A stretch of DNA of 64,000 nt from Eledone cirrhosa (Eukaryota), in NCBI GenBank assembly GCA_964016885.1, contig OZ024766.1:3162001-3226000 (forward strand), written 5' to 3'. Every line of letters begins with the position of its first letter. Positions within the stretch are counted from its first letter, which is position 1. A program made the translations under genes and the position numbers. The notes below the pieces were generated by a model that was given only the letters and a program-made list of their open reading frames with translations, made no database searches and was not told the DNA's origin. Below are positions 3,186 to 20,543 of this stretch, piece after piece.

Positions 3186-3228
<43 letters not shown>

Positions 3229-3276
3229 GTGTGATAATTCAAAATATAAATAAATATACACATTAACGTAATAAAA

Positions 3277-3349
3277 ATATATTTTATTATATATATTTCG
3301 GAGGTACTGTGCTGTTTTTTTCAGTACGTCCTCATCTGATAAAATATAT
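3277..3349 (-). ncRNA. Minimal type I hammerhead ribozyme motif, degenerate (CAGAUGA instead of CUGAUGA)
   Basis: Perfect 11-bp stem I, hairpin stem II (GGACGUACUG/CAGUACCUCC), GAA, palindromic AUAUAUAU, then A as H17. Confidence 0.65.
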
Positions 3350-5259: not shown

Positions 5260-6281
<1,022 letters not shown>

Positions 6282-7409
6282 TCAGTGATGAGGCTTCTCT
6301 CCTGTATGAATACGTTTATGTGTAGTTAATTGACCTGACTGAGAGAATGACTTTCTACAGATATCACAGTGATGAGGCTTCTCTCCTGTATGACTATATT
6401 TATGTACAGTTAACTGACTTGACAGGGAGAATGACTTCCCACAGATTTCACAGTGATAAGGTTTCTTTCCTGTATGAATATATTTATGTTTAGATAAAAT
6501 ACTTGGTTGAGAGAATGACTTACCACAGATATCACATTCATGAGGTTTCTCTCCTGTATGAATGTATTTATGTGTAGTTAAGTGATCATTTCGAGAGAAT
6601 GATTCACCACAGATATCACAGTGATGAGGCTTCTCTCCTGTATGAATATATTTATGTTTAGATAAACTACTTGACTGAGAGAATGACTTACCACAGATAT
6701 CACAGTGATGAGGCTTCTCTCCTGTATGAATACGTTTATGTGTAGTTAAATGTGCTGACGAAGAGAATGACTTTCCACAGATATCACAAGGATGAGGCTT
6801 CTCTCCAGTATGACTATATTTATGTACAGTTAATTGACCTGACTGAGAGAATGATTTACCACAGATATCACAGTGATGAGGCTTCTCTCCTGTATGAAGA
6901 TATTTATGTACAGTTAATTGACCTGACTGAGAGAATGACTTTCCACAGATATCACAGTGATGAGGCTTCTCTCCTGTATGACTATATTTATGTACAGTTA
7001 AGTGACTTGACCGGGAGAATGACTTCCCACAGATTTCACAGCGATAAGGTTTCTTTCCTGTATGAATATATTTATGTTTAGATAAACAACTTGACTGAGA
7101 GAATGACTTACCACAGATATCACATTCATGAGGTTTCTCTCCTGTATGAATACGTATGTGTCTAGTTAAGTCACCCTTACACGAGAATGATTTACCACAG
7201 ATATCACAGTGATGGGGTTTCTCTCCTGTATGGACAGATTTGTGTCTACTTACACTACTTGACATAGAAAATGATTTACCACAGATGTCACACTGATGAG
7301 GCTTCTCTCCTGTATGAATACCTATGTGTTTAGTTAAGTAACCCAACACAGAGAATGATTTACCACAGATATCACAGTTGTATGATGATTTTTTGTTCCT
7401 CTTTGACAT
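6282..7409 (-). CDS. C2H2 zinc-finger gene ZNF-2, 375 aa, 13 fingers, truncated by frameshift
   Basis: ORF track translation. Ends where ATATCACAGTG is reduced to ATATCAGTG, creating TGA. Confidence 0.88.
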   Translation of the reverse strand: MSKRNKKSSYNCDICGKSFSVLGYLTKHIGIHTGEKPHQCDICGKSFSMSSSVSRHKSVHTGEKPHHCDICGKSFSCKGDLTRHIRIHTGEKPHECDICGKSFSQSSCLSKHKYIHTGKKPYRCEICGKSFSRSSHLTVHKYSHTGEKPHHCDICGKSFSQSGQLTVHKYLHTGEKPHHCDICGKSFSQSGQLTVHKYSHTGEKPHPCDICGKSFSSSAHLTTHKRIHTGEKPHHCDICGKSFSQSSSLSKHKYIHTGEKPHHCDICGESFSRNDHLTTHKYIHTGEKPHECDICGKSFSQPSILSKHKYIHTGKKPYHCEICGKSFSLSSQLTVHKYSHTGEKPHHCDICRKSFSQSGQLTTHKRIHTGEKPHH

Positions 7410-8537
7410 CTTTTCAGGAAAAAATATTTTTGCACAGCAGAAAATAAGGATGTTTTTTCTTGGTCTTCTTTTTATAGTTTATTCCAAATAAATATTTTCA
7501 AAGTTAAATTCCCATCAACTTTGATTTTTGTTGACACCTGAAAATGATGCAAATTCCTTTATAGATTTACCCAAGTTTAATAAGAATACTATATCTTCTT
7601 GTACACTTTCCAGATAGTGAGGAGATAAATTATTTAATGAACCTCAGTTCAGAAGAAATATTTCACTGTAAGTCATCAAATGCTGATATAAAAAGACTTA
7701 TATGAATACTGCGTAAAATGTTGTGTTAGTTTTTGAAAGATATTGATGTTGTATCCGAAGTTAAAATTTCTCTTCTGTCAATGTCGTGTGATATTCTGAA
7801 ATAGCAAAGAAAACAAAATAAGTTATGGAGAATGTTGAAATGTGATTCAATAATGGAAATTTTACATTTCTATATTGATAAACTGGATATATAAACTTTC
7901 AGCTGAATAATTAAACTTTTCAATGTGTAAAAGTGTATTATACATCATGTGTGTGTATATATATTATATATACAGTATATGCCAGCGTACAAGTCGATAT
8001 TTATAGCCTAAAAATCTCACCTGCTCAGTTTCCTAGAAAATGAGTCATTTCCGACTGATTTTGAGGTTAGGTTTGTTGGAAACACGAAAACAAACTAGGA
8101 AAATTAACAATTTCCCACCTGACGACTGACAGGTGGTTTTGCTGTAAATTTACCTTAAATTAAAACAGATTTAGGCTAACATGTAGACAGATTTAATCAA
8201 CTTTAAACAACAAAGTACAGCTGAATATAAACTACACATTATAATACAAGGTAGTGAACAACATGATTAAATAGACGGAGGTAACTTAAATAATAAAGAC
8301 ACTCATAATAACAATCTATTTTATATCACATGTAACAGTAGAATCTAGCTATTGTAAAATAAGACAACATTTCAGTCTAGAAGTATTTTCCTGTATATAA
8401 AAGTGACGAGGAAGAAATATGTCCAAAGTTGTTAAATATTTTCACTTGTATATAATTACTGTATCGTTGAAAGGTTCACATAATTCTATTATTTACACAC
8501 ATTATTATAGACTTCAAGTAAATCTTTCTCAACTTAC

Positions 8538-8708
8538 CCTCTTCACATGTAATCAATGTGTTGACTTCTTATATTTTATTAAACAACCAAAGAAATAATC
8601 TTCTTGTTGTTGTTGAATAAGAATTTTCAAAGATTTTATCAGCTTTTCTTTGTCCGCCATTAACGTTGGTGTATCTTCTTATTCTTTAGCCACAGATTCG
8701 TATCTTGT
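8538..8708 (-). promoter_or_regulatory. Predicted exon 1 / promoter block of ZNF-2 with uORF 8660-8553; intron 8537-7796
   Basis: Same donor, acceptor and CCGCCATT (8654) as unit 1. Confidence 0.65.
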
Positions 8709-8803
8709 CACGATGAAGAAGTTAAGCTAGCTTTCTTTGTTTGTTTAAGGTATATGTTCCTCGTTGTCTTTCCCATTTGCCTCTCTACGCATGTGTATGT
8801 GTG

Positions 8804-8840
<37 letters not shown>

Positions 8841-8844
<4 letters not shown>

Positions 8845-9125
8845 GTGGAACACTGGGAGGTAATATCCGTAGTGGTAGAGCACTCAGACCAAGGGAGGAG
8901 TTAGGTAGAAGTGGTTTCACAACAGTTAGTTCACCATACCGAGAACAATTGTTTCACCTTCGCGGATCTTCAGCTCGGGATGTGTATATTTATAGGAACA
9001 GGAAGGACAACCGTACGAACGCGCATGCGCAGAAACTCGGTCACTTCACACAGGCAATACTAGACTGCGTGCGGGAAGTGTAAGGGAGATAACTGCGAAA
9101 GTCCGGAAAGTTTTTCGGTTGAAAA
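8841..9125 (-). mobile_element. GC-richer insert between (TA)n tracts, probable Penelope-like element terminal repeat
   Basis: Minus-strand TATAAATA (8993-8986) directly precedes a hammerhead motif. Flanked by (TA)n. Absent upstream of the paralogous genes. Confidence 0.55.
8939..8978 (-). ncRNA. Minimal 40-nt type I hammerhead ribozyme motif
   Basis: CCGAG-CUGAAGA-UCCGCGAAGGU-GAA-ACAAUUGU-U-CUCGG: 5-bp stem I, intact core, short stem II with a U-U closing mismatch, palindromic stem III, GUU triplet. Confidence 0.75.
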
Positions 9126-9153
9126 AAAATAAAATAAACTAAAATAAAATAAA

Positions 9154-9184
<31 letters not shown>

Positions 9185-9189
9185 TATAT

Positions 9190-9285
<96 letters not shown>

Positions 9286-9330
9286 TTACATATAGACACT
9301 TATATTTAAATATACATATATATATATATA

Positions 9331-9463
9331 TACGATATTAAATAAATGGAAACTATATTTATAAAACCATATTTATTTCATTATATATATTTCAGAGATA
9401 TCATATTAAAAATATGGTATGCCTTCTTCAGACAAATATAGTTTCCATTTATTTAATATCGTA
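9331..9463. repeat. Perfect 30-bp inverted repeat (9331-9360 / 9434-9463)
   Basis: TACGATATTAAATAAATGGAAACTATATTT and its exact reverse complement; the arms bracket a hammerhead motif. Confidence 0.9.
9374..9438 (-). ncRNA. Minimal type I hammerhead ribozyme motif (imperfect stem I)
   Basis: UAUUUGU-CUGAAGA-14-bp hairpin with 2 mismatches-GAA-AUAUAUAU-A-AU(G)AAAUA. Confidence 0.6.
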
Positions 9464-9697
9464 AATATACTCCAAATACTTGTTGAGTGCTTTTATATCA
9501 GTTATAAATATTTACTCGTTGTAACCCAACAATTTAAATAAAACTTTGCATATATATATATATATATATATATGTCGGAGGTGAGTTTTATTGTAGCACA
9601 ATAAAGCAATGCAGATATCGGATAAGTAGCATTCTACAGTTTGTAGGACTGGAGTATAAATAATATAAAATCAAGAGATGGTTAAAAGAGTTCGATG

Positions 9698-10001
9698 TAT
9701 TTTATTATGCGCATTTCAAAAACAAATATCATCATCATCATTTAACGTCCATATTCCACGCTTGCATGAGTCTGGACGGGAGTTTTCCCACTTGAGGCAA
9801 GAGTGGTTGTCTTGCTCGCATAGGACTCTGGCGGGTTTTCTACAGCTGGATGCCCTTCCTAACACCAACCACATTTACAGTGTGGAACTGGGAGGTTTTT
9901 ACCGTGTTACCTACACAGCCACATTACAGCGTGGACTGTGTGTTCTTTTGTCGTGACACCTACATCATGTGATGATATTTGCGTTCTCATCAGATAAAAT
10001 A
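9698..10001 (-). ncRNA. Hammerhead motif interrupted in loop II by a retroposon (inverted twin of 10077-10149)
   Basis: Perfect 8-bp stem I (UAUUUUAU/AUAAAAUA), CUGAUGA at 9993-9987, GAA-AUGCGCAU-A at 9717-9706. About 230 bp inserted at the tip of stem II. Confidence 0.7.
9728..9964 (-). mobile_element. RTE-tail-type short retroposon with (ATG)n tail
   Basis: (CAT)n-TTAACGTCCAT...TTTCTACAGCTGGATGCCCTTCCTAACACCAACC; same family as 61376-62100 and the copies upstream of ZNF-3 to ZNF-7. Confidence 0.7.
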
Positions 10002-10076
10002 AGTAGACAAAGAGCCATTTGCGAGTAGTGAAGTGTTAAATCGCAAGTGTTTTTCAAGCTTCATATCATGTCTCCC

Positions 10077-10149
10077 TGTATTATCTGATGAGAACGCAAA
10101 TATCATCCCATGATGATATTTGTTTTTGAAATGCGCATAATAAAATACA
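10077..10149 (+). ncRNA. Minimal type I hammerhead ribozyme motif with intact core
   Basis: UGUAUUAU-CUGAUGA(10085-10091)-16-bp stem II-GAA(10128-10130)-AUGCGCAU-A(10139)-AUAAAAUACA. Predicted cleavage after AUA at 10139. Confidence 0.8.
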
Positions 10150-10379
10150 TGGAACTCTTTTAACCATCTTTTGATCTTATATTATATATATATATACGTG
10201 TGTGTGTGTATGTATATATATATATATATGTATATACGTGTGTGTGTGGATGTATATCCTGAAATATACACCTATCAATGGAAACACAATCATCACTGTA
10301 TGATAATAGTTGGTTAAATTTTCAAAGCAGCCAATGTGTGTGAAGGGGAATTAGTTGAGTAGGTTTATAGAATGATTAT

Positions 10380-13300
10380 GATAAGGTAGGTAAATAGTTG
10401 TTGGTGGACAGGAAATGGAAGACAGACTTCCAGAGAAAGGTGGGGGATAAGGTAGGGAAATAGTTGTTGGTGGACAGGAAATGGAAGACAGCCTTCCAGA
10501 GAAAGGTGGGGGATAAGGTAGGGAAATAGTTGTTGGTGGACAGGTAATGGAAGACAGCCTTCCAGAGAAAGGTGGAGGATAAGGTAGGTAAATAGTTGTT
10601 GGTGGACAGGTAATGGAAGACAGCCTTCCAGAGAAAGGTGGAGGGTAAGGTAGGGAAATAGTTGTTGGTGGACAGGTAATGGAAGACAGCCTTCCAGAGA
10701 AAGGTGGGGGATAAGGTAGGGAAATAGTTGTTGGTGGACAGGAAATGGAAGACAGCCTTCCAGAGAAAGGTGGGGGATAAGGTAGGGAAATAGTTGTTGG
10801 TGGACAGGTAATGGAAGACAGCCTTCCAGAGAAAGGTGGAGGGTAAGGTAGGGAAATAGTTGTTGGTGGACAGGTAATGGAAGACAGCCTTCCAGAGAAA
10901 GGTGGAGGGTAAGGTAGGGAAATAGTTGTTGGTGGACAGGAAATAGAAGACAGCCTTCCAGAGAAAGGTGGGGGATAAGGTAGGGAAATAGTTGTTGGTG
11001 GACAGGTAATGGAAGACAGCCTTCCAGAGAAAGGTGGGGGATAAGGTAGGTAAATAGTTGTTGGTGGACAGGTAATGGAAGACAGACTTCCAGAGAAAGG
11101 TGGGGGACAAGGTAGGGAAATAGTTGTTGGTGGACAGGAAATAGAAGACAGCCTTCCAGAGAAAGGTGGAGGATAAGGTAGGTAAATAGTTGTTGGTGGA
11201 CAGGAAATGGAAGACAGCCTTCCAGAGAAAGGTGGGGGATAAGGTAGGGAAATAGTTGTTGGTGGACAGGTAATGGAAGACAGCCTTCCAGAGAAAGGTG
11301 GAGGATAAGGTAGGTAAATAGTTGTTGGTGGACAGGAAATGGAAGACAGCCTTCCAGAGAAAGGTGGAGGATAAGGTAGGTAAATAGTTGTTGGTGGACA
11401 GGTAATGGAAGACAGCCTTCCAGAGAAAGGTGGGGGATAAGGTAGGGAAATAGTTGTTGGTGGACAGGTAATGGAAGACAGCCTTCCAGAGAAAGGTGGA
11501 GGATAAGGTAGGTAAATAGTTGTTGGTGGACAGGAAATGGAAGACAGCCTTCCAGAGAAAGGTGGAGGATAAGGTAGGTAAATAGTTGTTGGTGGACAGG
11601 TAATGGAAGACAGCCTTCCAGAGAAAGGTGGGGGATAAGGTAGGGAAATAGTTGTTGGTGGACAGGAAATGGAAGACAGCCTTCCAGAGAAAGGTGAGGG
11701 ATAAGGTAGGGAAATAGTTGTTGGTGGTCAGGAAATGGAAGACAGCCTTCCAGAGAAAGGTGGAGGGTAAGGTAGGGAAATAGTTGTTGGTGGACAGGTA
11801 ATGGAAGACAGCCTTCCAGAGAAAGGTGGGGGATAAGGTAGGGAAATAGTTGTTGGTGGACAGGTAATGGAAGACAGCCTTCCAGAGAAAGGTGGAGGAT
11901 AAGGTAGGTAAATAGTTGTTGGTGGACAGGAAATGGAAGACAGCCTTCCAGAGAAAGGTGGAGGATAAGGTAGGTAAATAGTTGTTGGTGGACAGGTAAT
12001 GGAAGACAGCCTTCCAGAGAAAGGTGGGGGATAAGGTAGGGAAATAGTTGTTGGTGGACAGGAAATGGAAGACAGCCTTCCAGAGAAAGGTGAGGGATAA
12101 GGTAGGGAAATAGTTGTTGGTGGTCAGGAAATGGAAGACAGCCTTCCAGAGAAAGGTGGAGGGTAAGGTAGGGAAATAGTTGTTGGTGGACAGGTAATGG
12201 AAGACAGCCTTCCAGAGAAAGGTGGGGGATAAGGTAGGGAAATAGTTGTTGGTGGACAGGTAATGGAAGACAGCCTTCCAGAGAAAGGTGGGGGATAAGG
12301 TTGGGAAATAGTTGTTGGTGGACAGGTAATGGAAGACAGCCTTCCAGAGAAAGGTGGGGGATAAGGTAGGGAAATAGTTGTTGGTGGACAGGTAATGGAA
12401 GACAGCCTTCCAGAGAAAGGTGGAGGGTAAGGTAGGGAAATAGTTGTTGGTGGACAGGTAATGGAAGACAGCCTTCCAGAGAAAGGTGGGGGATAAGGTA
12501 GGTAAATAGTTGTTGGTGGACAGGTAATGGAAGACAGACTTCAAGAGAAAGGTGGGGGATAAGGTAGGGAAATAGTTGTTGGTGGACAGGTAATGGAAGA
12601 CAGCCTTCCAGAGAAAGGTGGAGGATAAGGTAGGGAAATAGTTGTTGGTGGACAGGAAATAGAAGACAGCCTTCCAGAGAAAGGTGGAGGATAAGGTAGG
12701 TAAATAGTTGTTGGTGGACAGGAAATGGAAGACAGCCTTCCAGAGAAAGGTGGAGGATAAGGTAGGTAAATAGTTGTTGGTGGACAGGAAATGGAAGATA
12801 GCCTTCCAGAGAAAGGTGGGGGATAAGGTAGGGAAATAGTTGTTGGTGGACAGGAAATGGAAGACAGCCTTCCAGAGAAAGGTGAGGGATAAGGTAGGGA
12901 AATAGTTGTTGGTGGTCAGGAAATGGAAGACAGCCTTCCAGAGAAAGGTGGAGGGTAAGGTAGGGAAATAGTTGTTGGTGGACAGGTAATGGAAGACAGC
13001 CTTCCAGAGAAAGGTGGGGGATAAGGTAGGGAAATAGTTGTTGGTGGACAGGTAATGGAAGACAGCTTTCCAGAGAAAGGTGGAGGATAAGGTGGGTAAA
13101 TAGTTGTTGGTGGACAGGAAATAGAAGACAGCCTTCCAGAGAAAGGTGGAGGGTAAGGTAGGAAAATAGTTGTTGGTGGACAGGAAATAGAAGACAGCCT
13201 TCCAGAGAAAGGTGGAGGATAAGGTAGGTAAATAGTTGTTGGTGGACAGGAAATAGAAGACAGCCTTCCAGAGAAAGGTGGAGGATAAGGTAGGTAAATA

Positions 13301-16300
13301 GTTGTTGGTGGACAGGTAATGGAAGACAGCTTTCCAGAGAAAGGTGGAGGATAAGGTGGGTAAATAGTTGTTGGTGGACAGGAAATAGAAGACAGCCTTC
13401 CAGAGAAAGGTGGAGGGTAAGGTAGGGAAATAGTTGTTGGTTGACAGGAAATGGAAGACAGACTTCCAGAGAAAGGTGGGGGATAAGGTAGGTAAATAGT
13501 TGTTGGTGGACAGGAAATAGAAGACAGCCTTCCAGAGAAAGGTGGAGGATAAGGTAGGTAAATAGTTGTTGGTGGACAGGAAATAGAAGACAGCCTTCCA
13601 GAGAAAGGTGGAGGATAAGGTAGGTAAATAGTTGTTGGTGGACAGGTAATGGAAGACAGCTTTCCAGAGAAAGGTGGAGGATAAGGTGGGTAAATAGTTG
13701 TTGGTGGACAGGAAATAGAAGACAGCCTTCCAGAGAAAGGTGGAGGGTAAGGTAGGGAAATAGTTGTTGGTTGACAGGAAATGGAAGACAGACTTCCAGA
13801 GAAAGGTGGGGGATAAGGTAGGTAAATAGTTGTTGGTGGACAGGAAATAGAAGACAGCCTTCCAGAGAAAGGTGGAGGATAAGGTAGGTAAATAGTTGTT
13901 GGTGGACAGGAAATAGAAGACAGCCTTCCAGAGAAAGGTGGGGGATAAGGTAGGGAAATAGTTGTTGGTGGACAGGTAATGGAAGACAGCCTTCCAGAGA
14001 AAGGTGGGGGATAAGGTAGGTAAATAGTTGTTGGTGGACAGGTAATGGAAGACAGACTTCCAGAGAAAGGTGGGGGATAAGGTAGGGAAATAGTTGTTGG
14101 TGGACAAGTAATGGAAGACAGCCTTCCAGAGAAAGGTGGAGGATAAGGTAGGGAAATAGTTGTTGGTGGACAGGAAATAGAAGACAGCCTTCCAGAGAAA
14201 GGTGGAGGATAAGGTAGGTAAATAGTTGTTGGTGGACAGCAAATGGAAGACAGCCTTCCAGAGAAAGGTGGAGGATAAGGTAGGTAAATAGTTGTTGGTG
14301 GACAGGAAATGGAAGATAGCCTTCCAGAGAAAGGTGGGGGATAAGGTAGGGAAATAGTTGTTGGTGGACAGGAAATGGAAAACAGCCTTCCAGAGAAAGG
14401 TGAGGGATAAGGTAGGGAAATAGTTGTTGGTGGTCAGGAAATGGAAGACAGCCTTCCAGAGAAAGGTGGAGGGTAAGGTAGGGAAATAGTTGTTGGTGGA
14501 CAGGTAATAGAAGACAGCCTTCCAGAGAAAGGTGGAGGGTAAGGTAGGGAAATAGTTGTTGGTGGACAGGTAATGGAAGACAGCCTTCCAGAGAAAGGTG
14601 GAGGGTAAGGTAGGGAAATAGTTGTTGGTGGACAGGTAATGGAAGACAGCTTTCCAGAGAAAGGTGGAGGATAAGGTTGGGAAATAGTTGTTGGTGGACA
14701 GGTAATGGAAGACAGCCTTCCAGAGAAAGGTGGAGGGTAAGGTAGGGAAATAGTTGTTGGTGGACAGGTAATGGAAGACAGCCTTCCAGAGAAAGGTGGA
14801 GGGTAAGGTAGGGAAATAGTTGTTGGTGGACAGGTAATAGAAGACAGCCTTCCAGAGAAAGGTGGAGGGTAAGGTAGGGAAATAGTTGTTGGTGGACAGG
14901 TAATAGAAGACAGCCTTCCAGAGAAAGGTGGAGGGTAAGGTAGGGAAATAGTTGTTGGTGGACAGGAAATAGAAGACAGCCTTCCAGAGAAAGGTGGAGG
15001 ATAAGGTTGGGAAATAGTTGTTGGTGGACAGGTAATGGAAGACAGCCTTCCAGAGAAAGGTGGAGGGTAAGGTAGGGAAATAGTTGTTGGTGACAGGTAA
15101 TGGAAGACAGCCTTCCAGAGAAAGGTGGGGGATAAGGTAGGGAAATAGTTGTTGGTGGACAGGTAATGGAAGACAGCCTTCCAGAGAAAGGTGGGGGATA
15201 AGGTAGGTAAATAGTTGTTGGTGGACAGGTAATGGAAGACAGACTTCCAGAGAAAGGTGGGGGATAAGGTAGGGAAATAGTTGTTGGTGGACAGGAAATG
15301 GAAGACAGCCTTCCAGAGAAAGGTGTAGGATAAGGTAGGTAAATAGTTGTTGGTGGACAGGTAATGGAAGACAGCTTTCCAGAGAAAGGTGGAGGATAAG
15401 GTAGGTAAATAGTTGTTGGTGGACAGGAAATAGAAGACAGCCTTCCAGAGAAAGGTGGAGGGTAAGGTAGGGAAATAGTTGTTGGTGGACAGGAAATGGA
15501 AGACAGCCTTCCAGAGAAAGGTGGAGGGTAAGGTAGGGAAATAGTTGTTGGTGGACAGGAAATAGAAGACAGCCTTCCAGAGAAAGGTGGGGGATAAGGT
15601 AGGGAAATAGTTGTTGGTGGACAGGTAATGGAAGACAGCCTTCCAGAGAAAGGTGTAGGATAAGGTAGGTAAATAGTTGTTGGTGGACAGGTAATGGAAG
15701 ACAGCTTTCCAGAGAAAGGTGGAGGATAAGGTAGGTAAATAGTTGTTGGTGGACAGGAAATAGAAGACAGCCTTCCAGAGAAAGGTGGAGGGTAAGGTAG
15801 GGAAATAGTTGTTGGTGGACAGGAAATGGAAGACAGCCTTCCAGAGAAAGGTGGAGGGTAAGGTAGGGAAATAGTTGTTGGTGGACAGGAAATAGAAGAC
15901 AGCCTTCCAGAGAAAGGTGGGGGATAAGGTAGGGAAATAGTTGTTGGTGGACAGGTAATGGAAGACAGCCTTCCAGAGAAAGGTGAGGGATAAGGTAGGG
16001 AAATAGTTGTTGGTGGTCAGGAAATGGAAGACAGCCTTCCAGAGAAAGGTGGAGGGTAAGGTAGGGAAATAGTTGTTGGTGGACAGGTAATGGAAGACAG
16101 CCTTCCAGAGAAAGGTGGGGGATAAGGTAGGGAAATAGTTGTTGGTGGACAGGTAATGGAAGACAGCCTTCCAGAGAAAGGTGGGGCTAAGGTTGGGAAA
16201 TAGTTGTTGGTGGACAGGTAATGGAAGACAGCCTTCCAGAGAAAGGTGGGGGATAAGGTAGGGAAATAGTTGTTGGTGGACAGGTAATGGAAGACAGCCT

Positions 16301-19300
16301 TCCAGAGAAAGGTGGAGGGTAAGGTAGGGAAATAGTTGTTGGTGGACAGGTAATGGAAGACAGCCTTCCAGAGAAAGGTGGAGGATAAGGTAGGGAAATA
16401 GTTGTTGGTGGACAGGAAATAGAAGACAGCCCTCCAGAGAAAGGTGGGGGATAAGGTAGGGAAATAGTTGTTGGTGGACAGGTAATGGAAGACAGCCTTC
16501 CAGAGAAAGGTGGGGGATAAGGTAGGTAAATAGTTGTTGGTGGACAGGTAATGGAAGACAGACTTCAAGAGAAAGGTGGGGGATAAGGTAGGGAAATAGT
16601 TGTTGGTGGACAGGTAATGGAAGACAGCCTTCCAGAGAAAGGTGGAGGATAAGGTAGGGAAATAGTTGTTGGTGGAAAGGAAATAGAAGACAGCCTTCCA
16701 GAGAATGGTGGAGGATAAGGTAGGTAAATAGTTGTTGGTGGACAGGAAATGGAAGACAGCCTTCCAGAGAAAGGTGGAGGATAAGGTAGGTAAATAGTTG
16801 TTGGTGGACAGGAAATGGAAGATAGCCTTCCAGAGAAAGGTGGGGGATAAGGTAGGGAAATAGTTGTTGGTGGACAGGAAATGGAAGACAGCCTTCCAGA
16901 GAAAGGTGAGGGATAAGGTAGGGAAATAGTTGTTGGTGGTCAGGAAATGGAAGACAGCCTTCCAGAGAAAGGTGGAGGGTAAGGTAGGGAAATAGTTGTT
17001 GGTGGACAGGTAATGGAAGACAGCCTTCCAGAGAAAGGTGGGGGATAAGGTAGGGAAATAGTTGTTGGTGGACAGGAAATAGAAGACAGCCTTCCAGAGA
17101 AAGGTGGAGGATAAGGTAGGTAAATAGTTGTTGGTGGACAGGAAATAGAAGACAGCCTTCCAGAGAAAGGTGGAGGATAAGGTAGGTAAATAGTTGTTGG
17201 TGGACAGGTAATGGAAGACAGCTTTCCAGAGAAAGGTGGAGGATAAGGTGGGTAAATAGTTGTTGGTGGACAGGAAATAGAAGACAGCCTTCCAGAGAAA
17301 GGTGGAGGGTAAGGTAGGAAAATAGCTGTTGGTGGACAGGAAATGGAAGACAGCCTTCCAGAGAAAGGTGGAGGATAAGGTAGGGAAATAGTTGTTGGTG
17401 GACAGGAAATGGAAGACAGCCTTCCAGAGAAAGGTGAGGGATAAGGTAGGGAAATAGTTGTTGGTGGTCAGGAAATGGAAGACAGCCTTCCAGAGAAAGG
17501 TGGAGGGTAAGGTAGGGAAATAGTTGTTGGTGGACAGGTAATGGAAGACAGCCTTCCAGAGAAAGGTGGGGGATAAGGTAGGGAAATAGTTGTTGGTGGA
17601 CAGGAAATAGAAGACAGCCTTCCAGAGAAAGGTGGAGGATAAGGTAGGTAAATAGTTGTTGGTGGACAGGAAATAGAAGACAGCCTTCCAGAGAAAGGTG
17701 GAGGATAAGGTAGGTAAATAGTTGTTGGTGGACAGGTAATGGAAGACAGCTTTCCAGAGAAAGGTGGAGGATAAGGTGGGTAAATAGTTGTTGGTGGACA
17801 GGAAATAGAAGACAGCCTTCCAGAGAAAGGTGGAGGGTAAGGTAGGAAAATAGCTGTTGGTGGACAGGAAATGGAAGACAGCCTTCCAGAGAAAGGTGGA
17901 GGATAAGGTAGGGAAATAGTTGTTGGTGGACAGGAAATAGAAGACAGCCTTCCAGAGAAAGGTGGAGGGTAAGGTAGGGAAATAGTTGTTGGTGGACAGG
18001 AAATAGAAGACAGCCTTCCAGAGAAAGGTGGAGGGTAAGGTAGGGAAATAGTTGTTGGTGGACAGGTAATGGAAGACAGCCTTCCAGAGAAAGGTGGGGG
18101 ATAAGGTAGGGAAATAGTTGTTGGTGGACAGGTAATGGAAGACAGCCTTCCAGAGAAAGGTGAGGGATAAGGTAGGGAAATAGTTGTTGGTGGTCAGGAA
18201 ATGGAAGACAGCCTTCCAGAGAAAGGTGGAGGGTAAGGTAGGGAAATAGTTGTTGGTGGACAGGTAATGGAAGACAGCCTTCCAGAGAAAGGTGGGGGAT
18301 AAGGTAGGGAAATAGTTGTTGGTGGACAGGAAATAGAAGACAGCCTTCCAGAGAAAGGTGGAGGATAAGGTAGGTAAATAGTTGTTGGTGGACAGGAAAT
18401 AGAAGACAGCCTTCCAGAGAAAGGTGGAGGATAAGGTAGGTAAATAGTTGTTGGTGGACAGGTAATGGAAGACAGCTTTCCAGAGAAAGGTGGAGGATAA
18501 GGTGGGTAAATAGTTGTTGGTGGACAGGAAATAGAAGACAGCCTTCCAGAGAAAGGTGGAGGGTAAGGTAGGAAAATAGCTGTTGGTGGACAGGAAATGG
18601 AAGACAGCCTTCCAGAGAAAGGTGGAGGATAAGGTAGGGAAATAGTTGTTGGTGGACAGGAAATAGAAGACAGCCTTCCAGAGAAAGGTGGAGGGTAAGG
18701 TAGGGAAATAGTTGTTGGTGGACAGGAAATAGAAGACAGCCTTCCAGAGAAAGGTGGAGGGTAAGGTAGGGAAATAGTTGTTGGTGGACAGGAAATAGAA
18801 GACAGCCTTCCAGAGAAAGGTGGAGGGTAAGGTAGGGAAATAGTTGTTGGTTGACAGGAAATGGAAGACAGACTTCCAGAGAAAGGTGGGGGATAAGGTA
18901 GGGAAATAGTTGTTGGTGGACAGGAAATAGAAGACAGCCTTCCAGAGAAAGGTGGAGGGTAAGGTAGGGAAATAGTTGTTGGTGGACAGGAAATAGAAGA
19001 CAGCCTTCCAGAGAAAGGTGGAGGGTAAGGTAGGGAAATAGTTGTTGGTGGACAGGAAATAGAAGACAGCCTTCCAGAGAAAGGTGGAGGGTAAGGTAGG
19101 GAAATAGTTGTTGGTGGACAGGAAATAGAAGACAGCCTTCCAGAGAAAGGTGGAGGGTAAGGTAGGGAAATAGTTGTTGGTTGACAGGAAATGGAAGACA
19201 GACTTCCAGAGAAAGGTGGGGGATAAGGTAGGGAAATAGTTGTTGGTGGACAGGTAATAGAAGACAGCCTTCCAGAGAAAGGTGGAGGATAAGGTAGGGA

Positions 19301-20543
19301 AATAGTTGTTGGTGGACAGGAAATGGAAGACAGCCTTCCAGAGAAAGGTGGAGGGTAAGGTAGGTAAATAGTTGTTGGTGGACAGGTAATGGAAGACAGC
19401 CTTCCAGAGAAAGGTGGGGGATAAGGTAGGGAAATAGTTGTTGGTGGACAGGAAATAGAAGACAGCCTTCCAGAGAAAGGTGGAGGATAAGGTAGGTAAA
19501 TAGTTGTTGGTGGACAGGAAATGGAAGACAGCCTTCCAGAGAAAGCTGGAGGATAAGGTAGAGAAATAGTTGTTGGTGGACAGGTAATGGAAGACGGCCT
19601 TCCAGAGAAAGGTGGAGGATAAGGTAGGGAAATAGTTGTTGGTGGACAGGTAATGGAAGACAGCCTTCCAGAGAAAGGTGGAGGATAAGGTAGGGAAATA
19701 GTTGTTGGTTGACAGGAAATGGAAGACAGCCTTCCAGAGAAAGGTGGGGGATAAGGTAGGGAAATAGTTGTTGGTGGACAGGTAATGGAAGACAGCCTTC
19801 CAGAGAAAGGTGGGGGATAAGGTAGGTAAATAGTTGTTGGTGGACAGGTAATGGAAGACAGCCTTCCAGAGAAAGGTGGAGGATAAGGTAGGGAAATAGT
19901 TGTTGGTGGACAGGTAATAGAAGACAGCCTTCCAGAGAAAGGTGGAGGGTAAGGTAGGGAAATAGTTGTTGGTGGACAGGTAATGGAAGACAGCCTTCCA
20001 GAGAAAGGTGGAGGATAAGGTAGGGAAATAGTTGTTGGTGGACAGGTAATGGAAGACAGCCTTCCAGAGAAAGGTGGAGGATAAGGTAGGGAAATAGTTG
20101 TTGGTGGACAGGAAATAGAAGACAGCCTTCCAGAGAAAGGTGGAGGGTAAGGTAGGGAAATAGTTGTTGGTTGACAGGAAATGGAAGACAGCCTTCCAGA
20201 GAAAGGTGGGGGATAAGGTAGGGAAATAGTTGTTGGTGGACAGGTAATGGAAGACAGCCTTCCAGAGAAAGGTGGAGGATAAGGTAGGGAAATAGTTGTT
20301 GGTGGACAGGAAATAGAAGACAGCCTTCCAGAGAAAGGTGGGGGATAAGGTAGGGAAATAGTTGTTGGTGGACAGGAAATGGAAGACAGCCTTCCAGAGA
20401 AAGGTGGAGGATAAGGTAGGTAAATAGTTGTTGGTGGACAGGAAATAGAAGACAGCCTTCCAGAGAAAGGTGGGGGATAAGGTAGGTAAATAGTTGTTGG
20501 TGGACAGGAAATGGAAGACAGCCTTCCAGAGAAAGGTGGGGGA
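10380..20543. repeat. 66-bp tandem satellite, about 154 copies, G/purine-rich plus strand
   Basis: Consensus GATAAGGTAGGKAAATAGTTGTTGGTGGACAGGWAATRGAAGACAGCCTTCCAGAGAAAGGTGGRG. Only two 1-bp deletions seen (~15092, ~16186). Explains the 22-aa-periodic giant ORFs. Confidence 0.98.

Follow-up and report, generated by a model that had tools for sequence, protein, structure and literature searches.

The (TA)n region upstream of the ZNF-2 gene contains three 5'-truncated insertions that, judged from sequence, are very probably copies of Penelope-like elements (PLEs) with Hydra-clade motifs, and their four hammerheads are the standard ribozymes of the terminal repeats, here likely inert passengers. 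Hammerheads in the repeats of Hydra-type Penelope elements within (TA)n are already in print, octopus included, and the case in this window (the whole 64 kb stretch of DNA analysed) is an ordinary one. The preliminary description had likewise read the motifs as minimal, palindromic-stem-III type I hammerheads of Penelope-like elements in (TA)n, and this reading is upheld by copies that run into open reading frames (ORFs) with reverse transcriptase (RT) and GIY-YIG nuclease.

Hammerhead motifs and the insertions that carry them

Scanning both strands of the 64 kb window with a minimal type I hammerhead descriptor (CUGANGA, stem II, GAA, palindromic 8-mer, H, stem I) gave exactly four matches, with cores at 8973–8944 (−), 9431–9382 (−), 9993–9706 (−) and 10085–10139 (+); palindromes and cut sites agree with the positions previously given for four hammerheads. 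The core, the UH cut site, stems I and II and the palindromic stem III that define the minimal type I form are present in all four, and stem III is a self-complementary 8-mer in each, as had been described. When stem II was limited to 60 nt, none of 2000 dinucleotide shuffles of 8900–10200 contained a match; with up to 400 nt allowed, one match arose in two of 2000 shuffles and two matches in none, so that shuffled AT-rich DNA does not reach the observed motif density, the outcome on which the earlier claim had been staked.

The motifs differ in quality. Motif 4, with a stem II of 15 bp and one mismatch, is the best-formed of the four and folds better than its shuffles (z −2.97), motifs 1 and 2 fold no better than theirs (z 0.19 and 0.30), and motif 1 has a stem II of just 2–3 bp with a U.U closure, as well as U at the cut site. 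The core halves of motif 3 are separated by 269 nt, its loop II having been enlarged by a later insertion. In Rfam, the four motifs had no match at the gathering score, and no hammerhead family was returned even at E ≤ 10; the Rfam miRNA matches in the region are TA/TG repeats.

The count of four stands for the cores, but there are only three insertions, as a single inverted repeat has motif 3 on one arm and motif 4 on the other. Insertion A contains motif 1, insertion B motif 2 and insertion C motifs 3 and 4, with only (TA)n between them; the order along the + strand is (TA)n, A, (TA)n, B, (TA)n, C, (TA)n and then a 66 bp satellite. The features of the region are as follows.

8540–8779, − strand: predicted first non-coding exon of ZNF-2, GT donor at ~8540, conserved in paralogous ZNF units
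8806–8841, no strand: (TA)n tract adjoining element A on its 3' side, also present in the ZNF-1 unit (3194–3224), there without A, B and C
8841–9154, − strand: element A, 5'-truncated 3' UTR/pseudo-LTR of a Hydra-type PLE, terminating at the long end (with tail)
8879–8901, − strand: tail hairpin 1 of family A, upper stem with two substitutions relative to other copies
8939–8978, − strand: motif 1, family A hammerhead, stem I of 5 bp, predicted cut after 8944
9154–9332, no strand: (TA)n/(CA)n tract separating A from B
9333–9440, − strand: left arm of element B, cut off just 5' of stem I, terminating at the short end
9374–9439, − strand: motif 2, family B hammerhead, predicted cut after 9382
9434–9549, + strand: right arm of element B, beginning 3' of the hammerhead, terminating at the long end
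9469–9491, + strand: tail hairpin 1 of family B
9550–9573, no strand: (TA)n tract separating B from C, read from the sequence
9574–10001, − strand: left arm of element C (long end), with motif 3
9628–9655, − strand: tail hairpin 1 of family C, lower stem with one substitution
9698–10001, − strand: motif 3, family C hammerhead, base of stem II intact, predicted cut after 9706
9736–9968, − strand: abundant repeat with a (TGA)n tail, here a 5'-truncated copy of ~233 bp that entered loop II of motif 3 at ATGATG
10002–10043, no strand: junction of the C arms, ~17 nt of filler and a 26 nt inverted piece of upstream repeat sequence
10041–10183, + strand: right arm of element C (short end), with motif 4
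10077–10149, + strand: motif 4, family C hammerhead, predicted cut after 10139
10184–10257, no strand: (TA)n/(TG)n tract right of element C

B and C are each an outward-facing inverted pair of one short and one long arm. The arms of B overlap by ~7 nt of microhomology, the right arm being without a hammerhead core, and those of C form an inverted repeat of 81 nt at 95% identity. The (TGA)n-tailed insert in motif 3, of which all 40 scored candidates (from 1090 candidates) are 95–100% identical, is likely the 3' end of an RTE-type LINE, a putative label. Four contig sets matched to 9335–10185 attracted thousands of other repeat copies and were uninformative for the locus or its alleles.

Two neighbouring features were also observed. 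In the 10 kb satellite (10380–20543) a purine-rich unit of 66 bp is repeated 154 times (95% matches), and there are long open frames on the minus strand. Between TA tracts upstream of ZNF-1 (3240–3330, −) lies a relic of a Hydra-type hammerhead of a B-like family, its core broken by a change of the second base, which represents an independent insertion at the paralogous place.

Element proteins and probable membership of the Hydra clade

Longer copies of all three families lead into ORFs with RT and, at the C-terminus, a GIY-YIG nuclease, the linkage by which the preliminary description had proposed to check its reading. Element A is 95–98% identical to other copies, and a whole unit of its family at locus L091 has the arrangement repeat-ORF-repeat, measuring 2,577 bp from repeat to repeat within TA/CA. 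A near-full unit of family B (L103) has the same RT-then-GIY-YIG order and is longer, at ~3.8 kb with a 3' UTR of 1.4 kb. For family C the gene order was pieced together from separate partial copies: L104 and L107 have frames for the nuclease and thumb upstream of the hammerhead, and the repeat end runs into the 5' UTR and ORF start in 17 of 20 loci (L201–L220).

DKT, YRDD, CxCx5C, the C-terminal GIY-YIG, CxxC and CxH are present in all three families. SDKTN replaces the DKG form in A, B and C alike; the CxCx5C linker precedes the nuclease in A (L091, L092), B (L096, L097, L100, L103) and C (L107, L005); and CxLC with CxH was found in each family, L103 having LRH at the CxH position. The nuclease core has no CCHH finger, its GIY and YIG halves being separated by a stretch with one Cys or none. 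The MAFFT protein alignment was relied on for the nuclease region only, and sequence searches of Pfam and PDB recognised neither the RT nor the nuclease.

These features can be set against the Hydra clade as presented in the part of PMC8557442 available to us, namely TA-targeting, hammerhead-bearing PLEs of <3 kb with an octopus member, Hydra-1_Obim (Octopus bimaculoides). The elements resemble that clade in their <3 kb unit, their single ORF with RT followed by GIY-YIG, their DKT, CxCx5C linker, CxxC and CxH, their (TA)n targets and the hammerhead in the 3' repeat. In 70 of the 77 copies sampled, (TA)5 is no more than 170 nt away from the cut site, and the three copies in the window are all TA-flanked. 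The hammerhead sits in a pseudo-LTR, and both tandem and inverted arrangements are seen among family copies. At the N-terminal position where the clade, in the same available text, has RWK, families A and B have RWR and C copies have RWI, KWI or RWT, so that the tryptophan is kept and the lysine is not. The A protein resembles Hydra-1_Obim in a comparison made by eye only; this likeness to an octopus entry, together with the other features of the region, suggests that the host is an octopus or a close relative of one. The hammerhead listed for Hydra-1_Obim in the available tables of PMC8557442 differs from all three found here, and A, B and C look like other families because none has it. A Naiad PLE, with an N-terminal nuclease and no canonical hammerhead, was also considered and ruled out, the nuclease being C-terminal here and the hammerheads canonical in order.

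Similarly, the ribozymes have close counterparts in print. Motif 1's U.U closure of stem II and its U at the cut site are both seen again in the Hydra hammerhead table of PMC8557442, in which, as far as it is available, stem III is mostly 9 nt, in contrast to the even 8 nt palindrome here. The portions of PMC4209133 at hand describe metazoan Penelope hammerheads with the same type I core, short stem I and palindromic stem III, found in thousands of copies, mostly solo and derived from truncated elements, and in opposite-strand pairs 100–700 bp apart, as here. Against that same account, the usual G10.1–C11.1 pair is replaced by U.U in A, A-U in B and G.U or A-U in C, and the copy number is far higher here (~105,000 in three patterns).

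Genome-wide copies, family relationships and clustering

Each motif belongs to a dispersed, (TA)n-flanked repeat with thousands of copies. Exact family cores number 7,559 for A and 22,121 for C, each against 0 in the reversed control, and 75,862 for the B-like pattern against 79, the last being a broad group of several families; the three patterns together amount to ~105,000 cores in the 3.0 Gb assembly. A loose core pattern gave 238,214 matches genome-wide against 45,383 in the reversed control, an excess of ~190,000 core matches from many families, corresponding to one per 15 kb; cores of the Hydra type recur about every 15–30 kb in this genome. The copies in the window are 95–99% identical to their nearest relatives and have private substitutions. 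In family A we also noted inverted pairs (L121/L122, L125/L126) with the junction at the 5' end of the hammerhead and the cores back to back.

The families had been called three and unrelated, which has to be corrected: the B and C repeats align with a score of 97, against 49 ± 7 in shuffles, and their proteins are 47–61% identical. Family A is more distant, with a protein identity of 33–48% to B and C and a DNA alignment that is not significant.

A special hotspot for ribozyme-bearing elements, as suggested earlier, is not borne out. Downstream of 89 pattern-anchored copies, six cores of another of the families A, B and C were found, against ~3 expected from the genome-wide density. The stem filter retained 77 of 90 anchors and removed 13; nine of those retained had one further family within 1.3 kb, and three families together occurred at none. 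The four cores in the window correspond to the genome-average density. The three-family cluster is uncommon, yet it is one of many thousands of chances, and TA targeting, inverted pairs and >100,000 copies are enough to account for it.

Conservation of pairing in the stems

Compensatory changes among genomic copies, which the earlier reading required, were found in the B-like group and not in family C. Across 27 distinct B-like hammerheads, pairing holds in 90.7% of cells and eight of 22 pairs change on both sides, a covariation score reached by none of 500 shuffles, though inflated by the relatedness of the copies. In family C (30 sequences) 97.6% of cells pair, with ten of 25 pairs varying on one side only and none on both. 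Selection on structure thus acts at the level of the family, in active elements, and is silent on these particular copies. Separately, the excess of hammerhead cores in this genome constitutes an unusually large natural set for covariation work.

Relation to the ZNF genes

The window, on contig C27, lies in an array of C2H2 zinc-finger genes, and all four motifs lie upstream of the predicted first exon of ZNF-2; this exon and the promoter are predicted to be downstream of every motif because the GT donor at ~8540 and the DNA up to 8779 are conserved in paralogous units. Six other ZNF units in the window are without A, B and C, among them ZNF-1, whose upstream DNA is 96.7% identical as far as the same TA tract. 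The finger array of ZNF-2 (5430–7478, −) has a shift of frame at ~6300 and further stops downstream, giving ~375 residues from the likely start; the frameshift represents either decay or an assembly error.

It had been proposed that the hammerheads co-oriented with the genes cut read-through RNA from ZNF-3 and the satellite ahead of ZNF-2. Three of the four motifs do lie on the ZNF strand with intact cores, and stem II of motif 3 is predicted to be still able to pair around its insertion; however, orientation says little, since the design of C makes one of its arms face the ZNF strand in any case. A same-strand partner is absent, no two motifs of one family lying on one strand in the region, and mixed stem-III duplexes are predicted to be unstable, with energies of +1.7 to −0.6 kcal/mol where self-pairs reach −3.2 to −10.5; mixed A/B/C ribozyme dimers were rejected on these values. 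In the available parts of the published work, a single minimal hammerhead did not cleave as a monomer and dimers cleaved weakly (PMC4209133), while the Poseidon ribozyme cleaved only with the element protein, was dispensable for insertion and had no RNA ends at its cut site in public data (PMC11167929). The copies are also young, at 95–99% identity to others with private substitutions, and are missing from the six paralogous units, including ZNF-1. Together with the position of the motifs upstream of the predicted exon, this makes it highly improbable that the hammerheads are kept as cutters of read-through RNA, and the proposal is not sustained.

A separate idea, compatible with the reading of the insertions as Penelope-like copies and independent of cleavage, is that the A repeat, which faces the conserved promoter and first exon of ZNF-2 from ~60 nt away, supplies promoter activity to that gene. 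The A repeat is co-oriented with ZNF-2 and contains a GCGCATGCGC palindrome at 9021–9030, the sole one in the window and 240 nt from the ZNF-2 promoter region. We take this palindrome to resemble an NRF1 site, and it may be part of the promoter of element A. According to a review (PMC6765202), Penelope terminal repeats contain promoters that fire into downstream DNA. Against this, ZNF-1 has the same promoter region without A, and the finger array of ZNF-2 is frameshifted after ~375 codons, so that we regard the idea as unlikely.

Insertion ends and twin hairpins

The distance from the cut site to the TA falls into two clusters in each family, ~36 or 102 nt in A, 49 or 138 nt in B and 43 or 133 nt in C. 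Of 56 outward-facing inverted pairs, 46 combine one long with one short end (p = 6e-7, tested against one half); in six of the ten others an arm runs on into the 5' UTR, and a hand count that dropped eight pairs with such an arm gave 44 of 48. The counts come from loci taken as best hits or as the first places along contig C1, not from a random sample. In the window, B and C obey the same one-short-one-long rule. An inverted repeat with a one-sided tail is a known Penelope arrangement in the available text of PMC3846280 and PMC8557442, and the pairs here resemble the Penelope inverted pseudo-LTRs of PMC3846280, in the part at hand, in being outward-facing inverted copies with the tail on one side. 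Tails measure 65–90 nt here, against 30–40 nt for Hydra in the accessible portion of PMC8557442.

About 7 nt after the short end, a bulged hairpin (RCUC...GAGY-RCU) begins in A, B and C; the strict pattern occurs in 32 of 43 long-tailed copies, and variants occur in four further families. In B a second copy of the hairpin follows 9 nt past the long end, its outer pair being G-C instead of A-U. For C a second hairpin was predicted beforehand, and one is indeed present 8 nt past the long end (chance 2 in 20,000). In A, the second hairpin requires a loop of 88 nt and has a mismatch at the first pair, and folding of the hairpins is weak (z −0.86 and 0.06). Two direct repeats of ~35 nt were noted in the family A 5' UTR (L221–L245), within the apparent enlarged loop of the second hairpin. 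Similar hairpins are readable by eye in published Hydra consensus sequences of a sea cucumber, a coral and a copepod. Within literature from which most subscription papers and the PMC11167929 supplements are missing, searches for a tail hairpin or a Penelope structure led to nothing beyond the papers cited here, and a word search showed that 'hairpin' is absent from PMC8557442 and PMC3846280.

On the strength of these sequence patterns, the hairpins near both ends are likely candidates for start signals of reverse transcription. In the part of PMC11167929 available to us, reverse transcription of the Poseidon element is reported to start at two internal sites and to extend both strands, with a hammerhead that depends on protein, and the situation here resembles that of Poseidon_Ac in vitro, where the two start sites bracket the tail and both DNA strands are extended; here, in contrast to those parts of PMC3846280 and PMC11167929, each of the two ends directly precedes its own copy of a conserved bulged hairpin. 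We lean towards a model in which, in Hydra-type elements, one hairpin in the tail and one just before the ORF would each fix an RT start 6–9 nt upstream, and a dimeric RT-nuclease would prime one cDNA per cut end of the (TA)n on a single RNA.

The insertions themselves likely formed when the element protein cut (TA)n and both cut DNA ends primed reverse transcription. Priming at two fixed internal sites of the element RNA, 65–90 nt apart, would yield the long and short arms of the inverted pair. Each start site would lie 6–9 nt before one of the two bulged hairpins, which likely position the enzyme, and TA left on both sides of each insertion would keep the tract a target. The hammerhead likely cuts only as a same-family dimer or with the element protein, in tandem full-length RNA, and the LINE-type end entered motif 3 later.

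Alternative origins of the motifs

Two further explanations concern what the pieces are. The motifs could be chance matches in AT-rich DNA, for which it may be said that the folding of motifs 1 and 2 does not surpass that of shuffles and that motif 2 has nothing but alternating AT in its stem III; nevertheless, two matches in none of 2000 shuffles, thousands of conserved copies against near-zero controls and two-sided changes in B-like stems leave a negligible probability for chance, which we regard as refuted by the copy and shuffle counts. Alternatively, the pieces could each be mobile as a unit, in the form of non-autonomous retrozymes or small fold-back elements, and would then not be the truncated ends of coding elements. 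Most copies are short, the whole B fold-back is matched at ten loci and many C pairs are similar in span (200–255 nt), as such units would be; on the other hand, fold-back junctions vary between loci, and spans range from <100 to 3,000 nt, the longer ones containing the ORF. The definition of retrozymes, in the part of bioRxiv 10.64898/2026.07.22.740005 available, requires tandem arrays, and there are none here, making mobility as units distinctly unlikely.

The truncated Penelope-like copies favoured here do share type I hammerheads, a Penelope origin and local copies without protein with metazoan non-LTR retrozymes, as these are described in the available text of bioRxiv 10.64898/2026.07.22.740005 (compare PMC7229834), but differ from them in having no tandem arrays and in belonging to families with protein-coding full-length members. 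Membership of the non-LTR retrozymes was ruled out, a tandem same-family core within 1.3 kb occurring in none of the 77 sampled copies and the families having ORF-bearing members.

Implications

The findings caution against inferring gene regulation from ribozymes near genes in such genomes. Penelope elements are the closest retroelement relatives of telomerase, and the twin hairpins bear on how they choose internal RT starts and form inverted insertions, which the available parts of PMC8557442 and PMC11167929 state as an open question. If the model is true, the twin hairpins would explain the one-short-one-long insertions B and C and would give a sequence-level cause for the Penelope tail.
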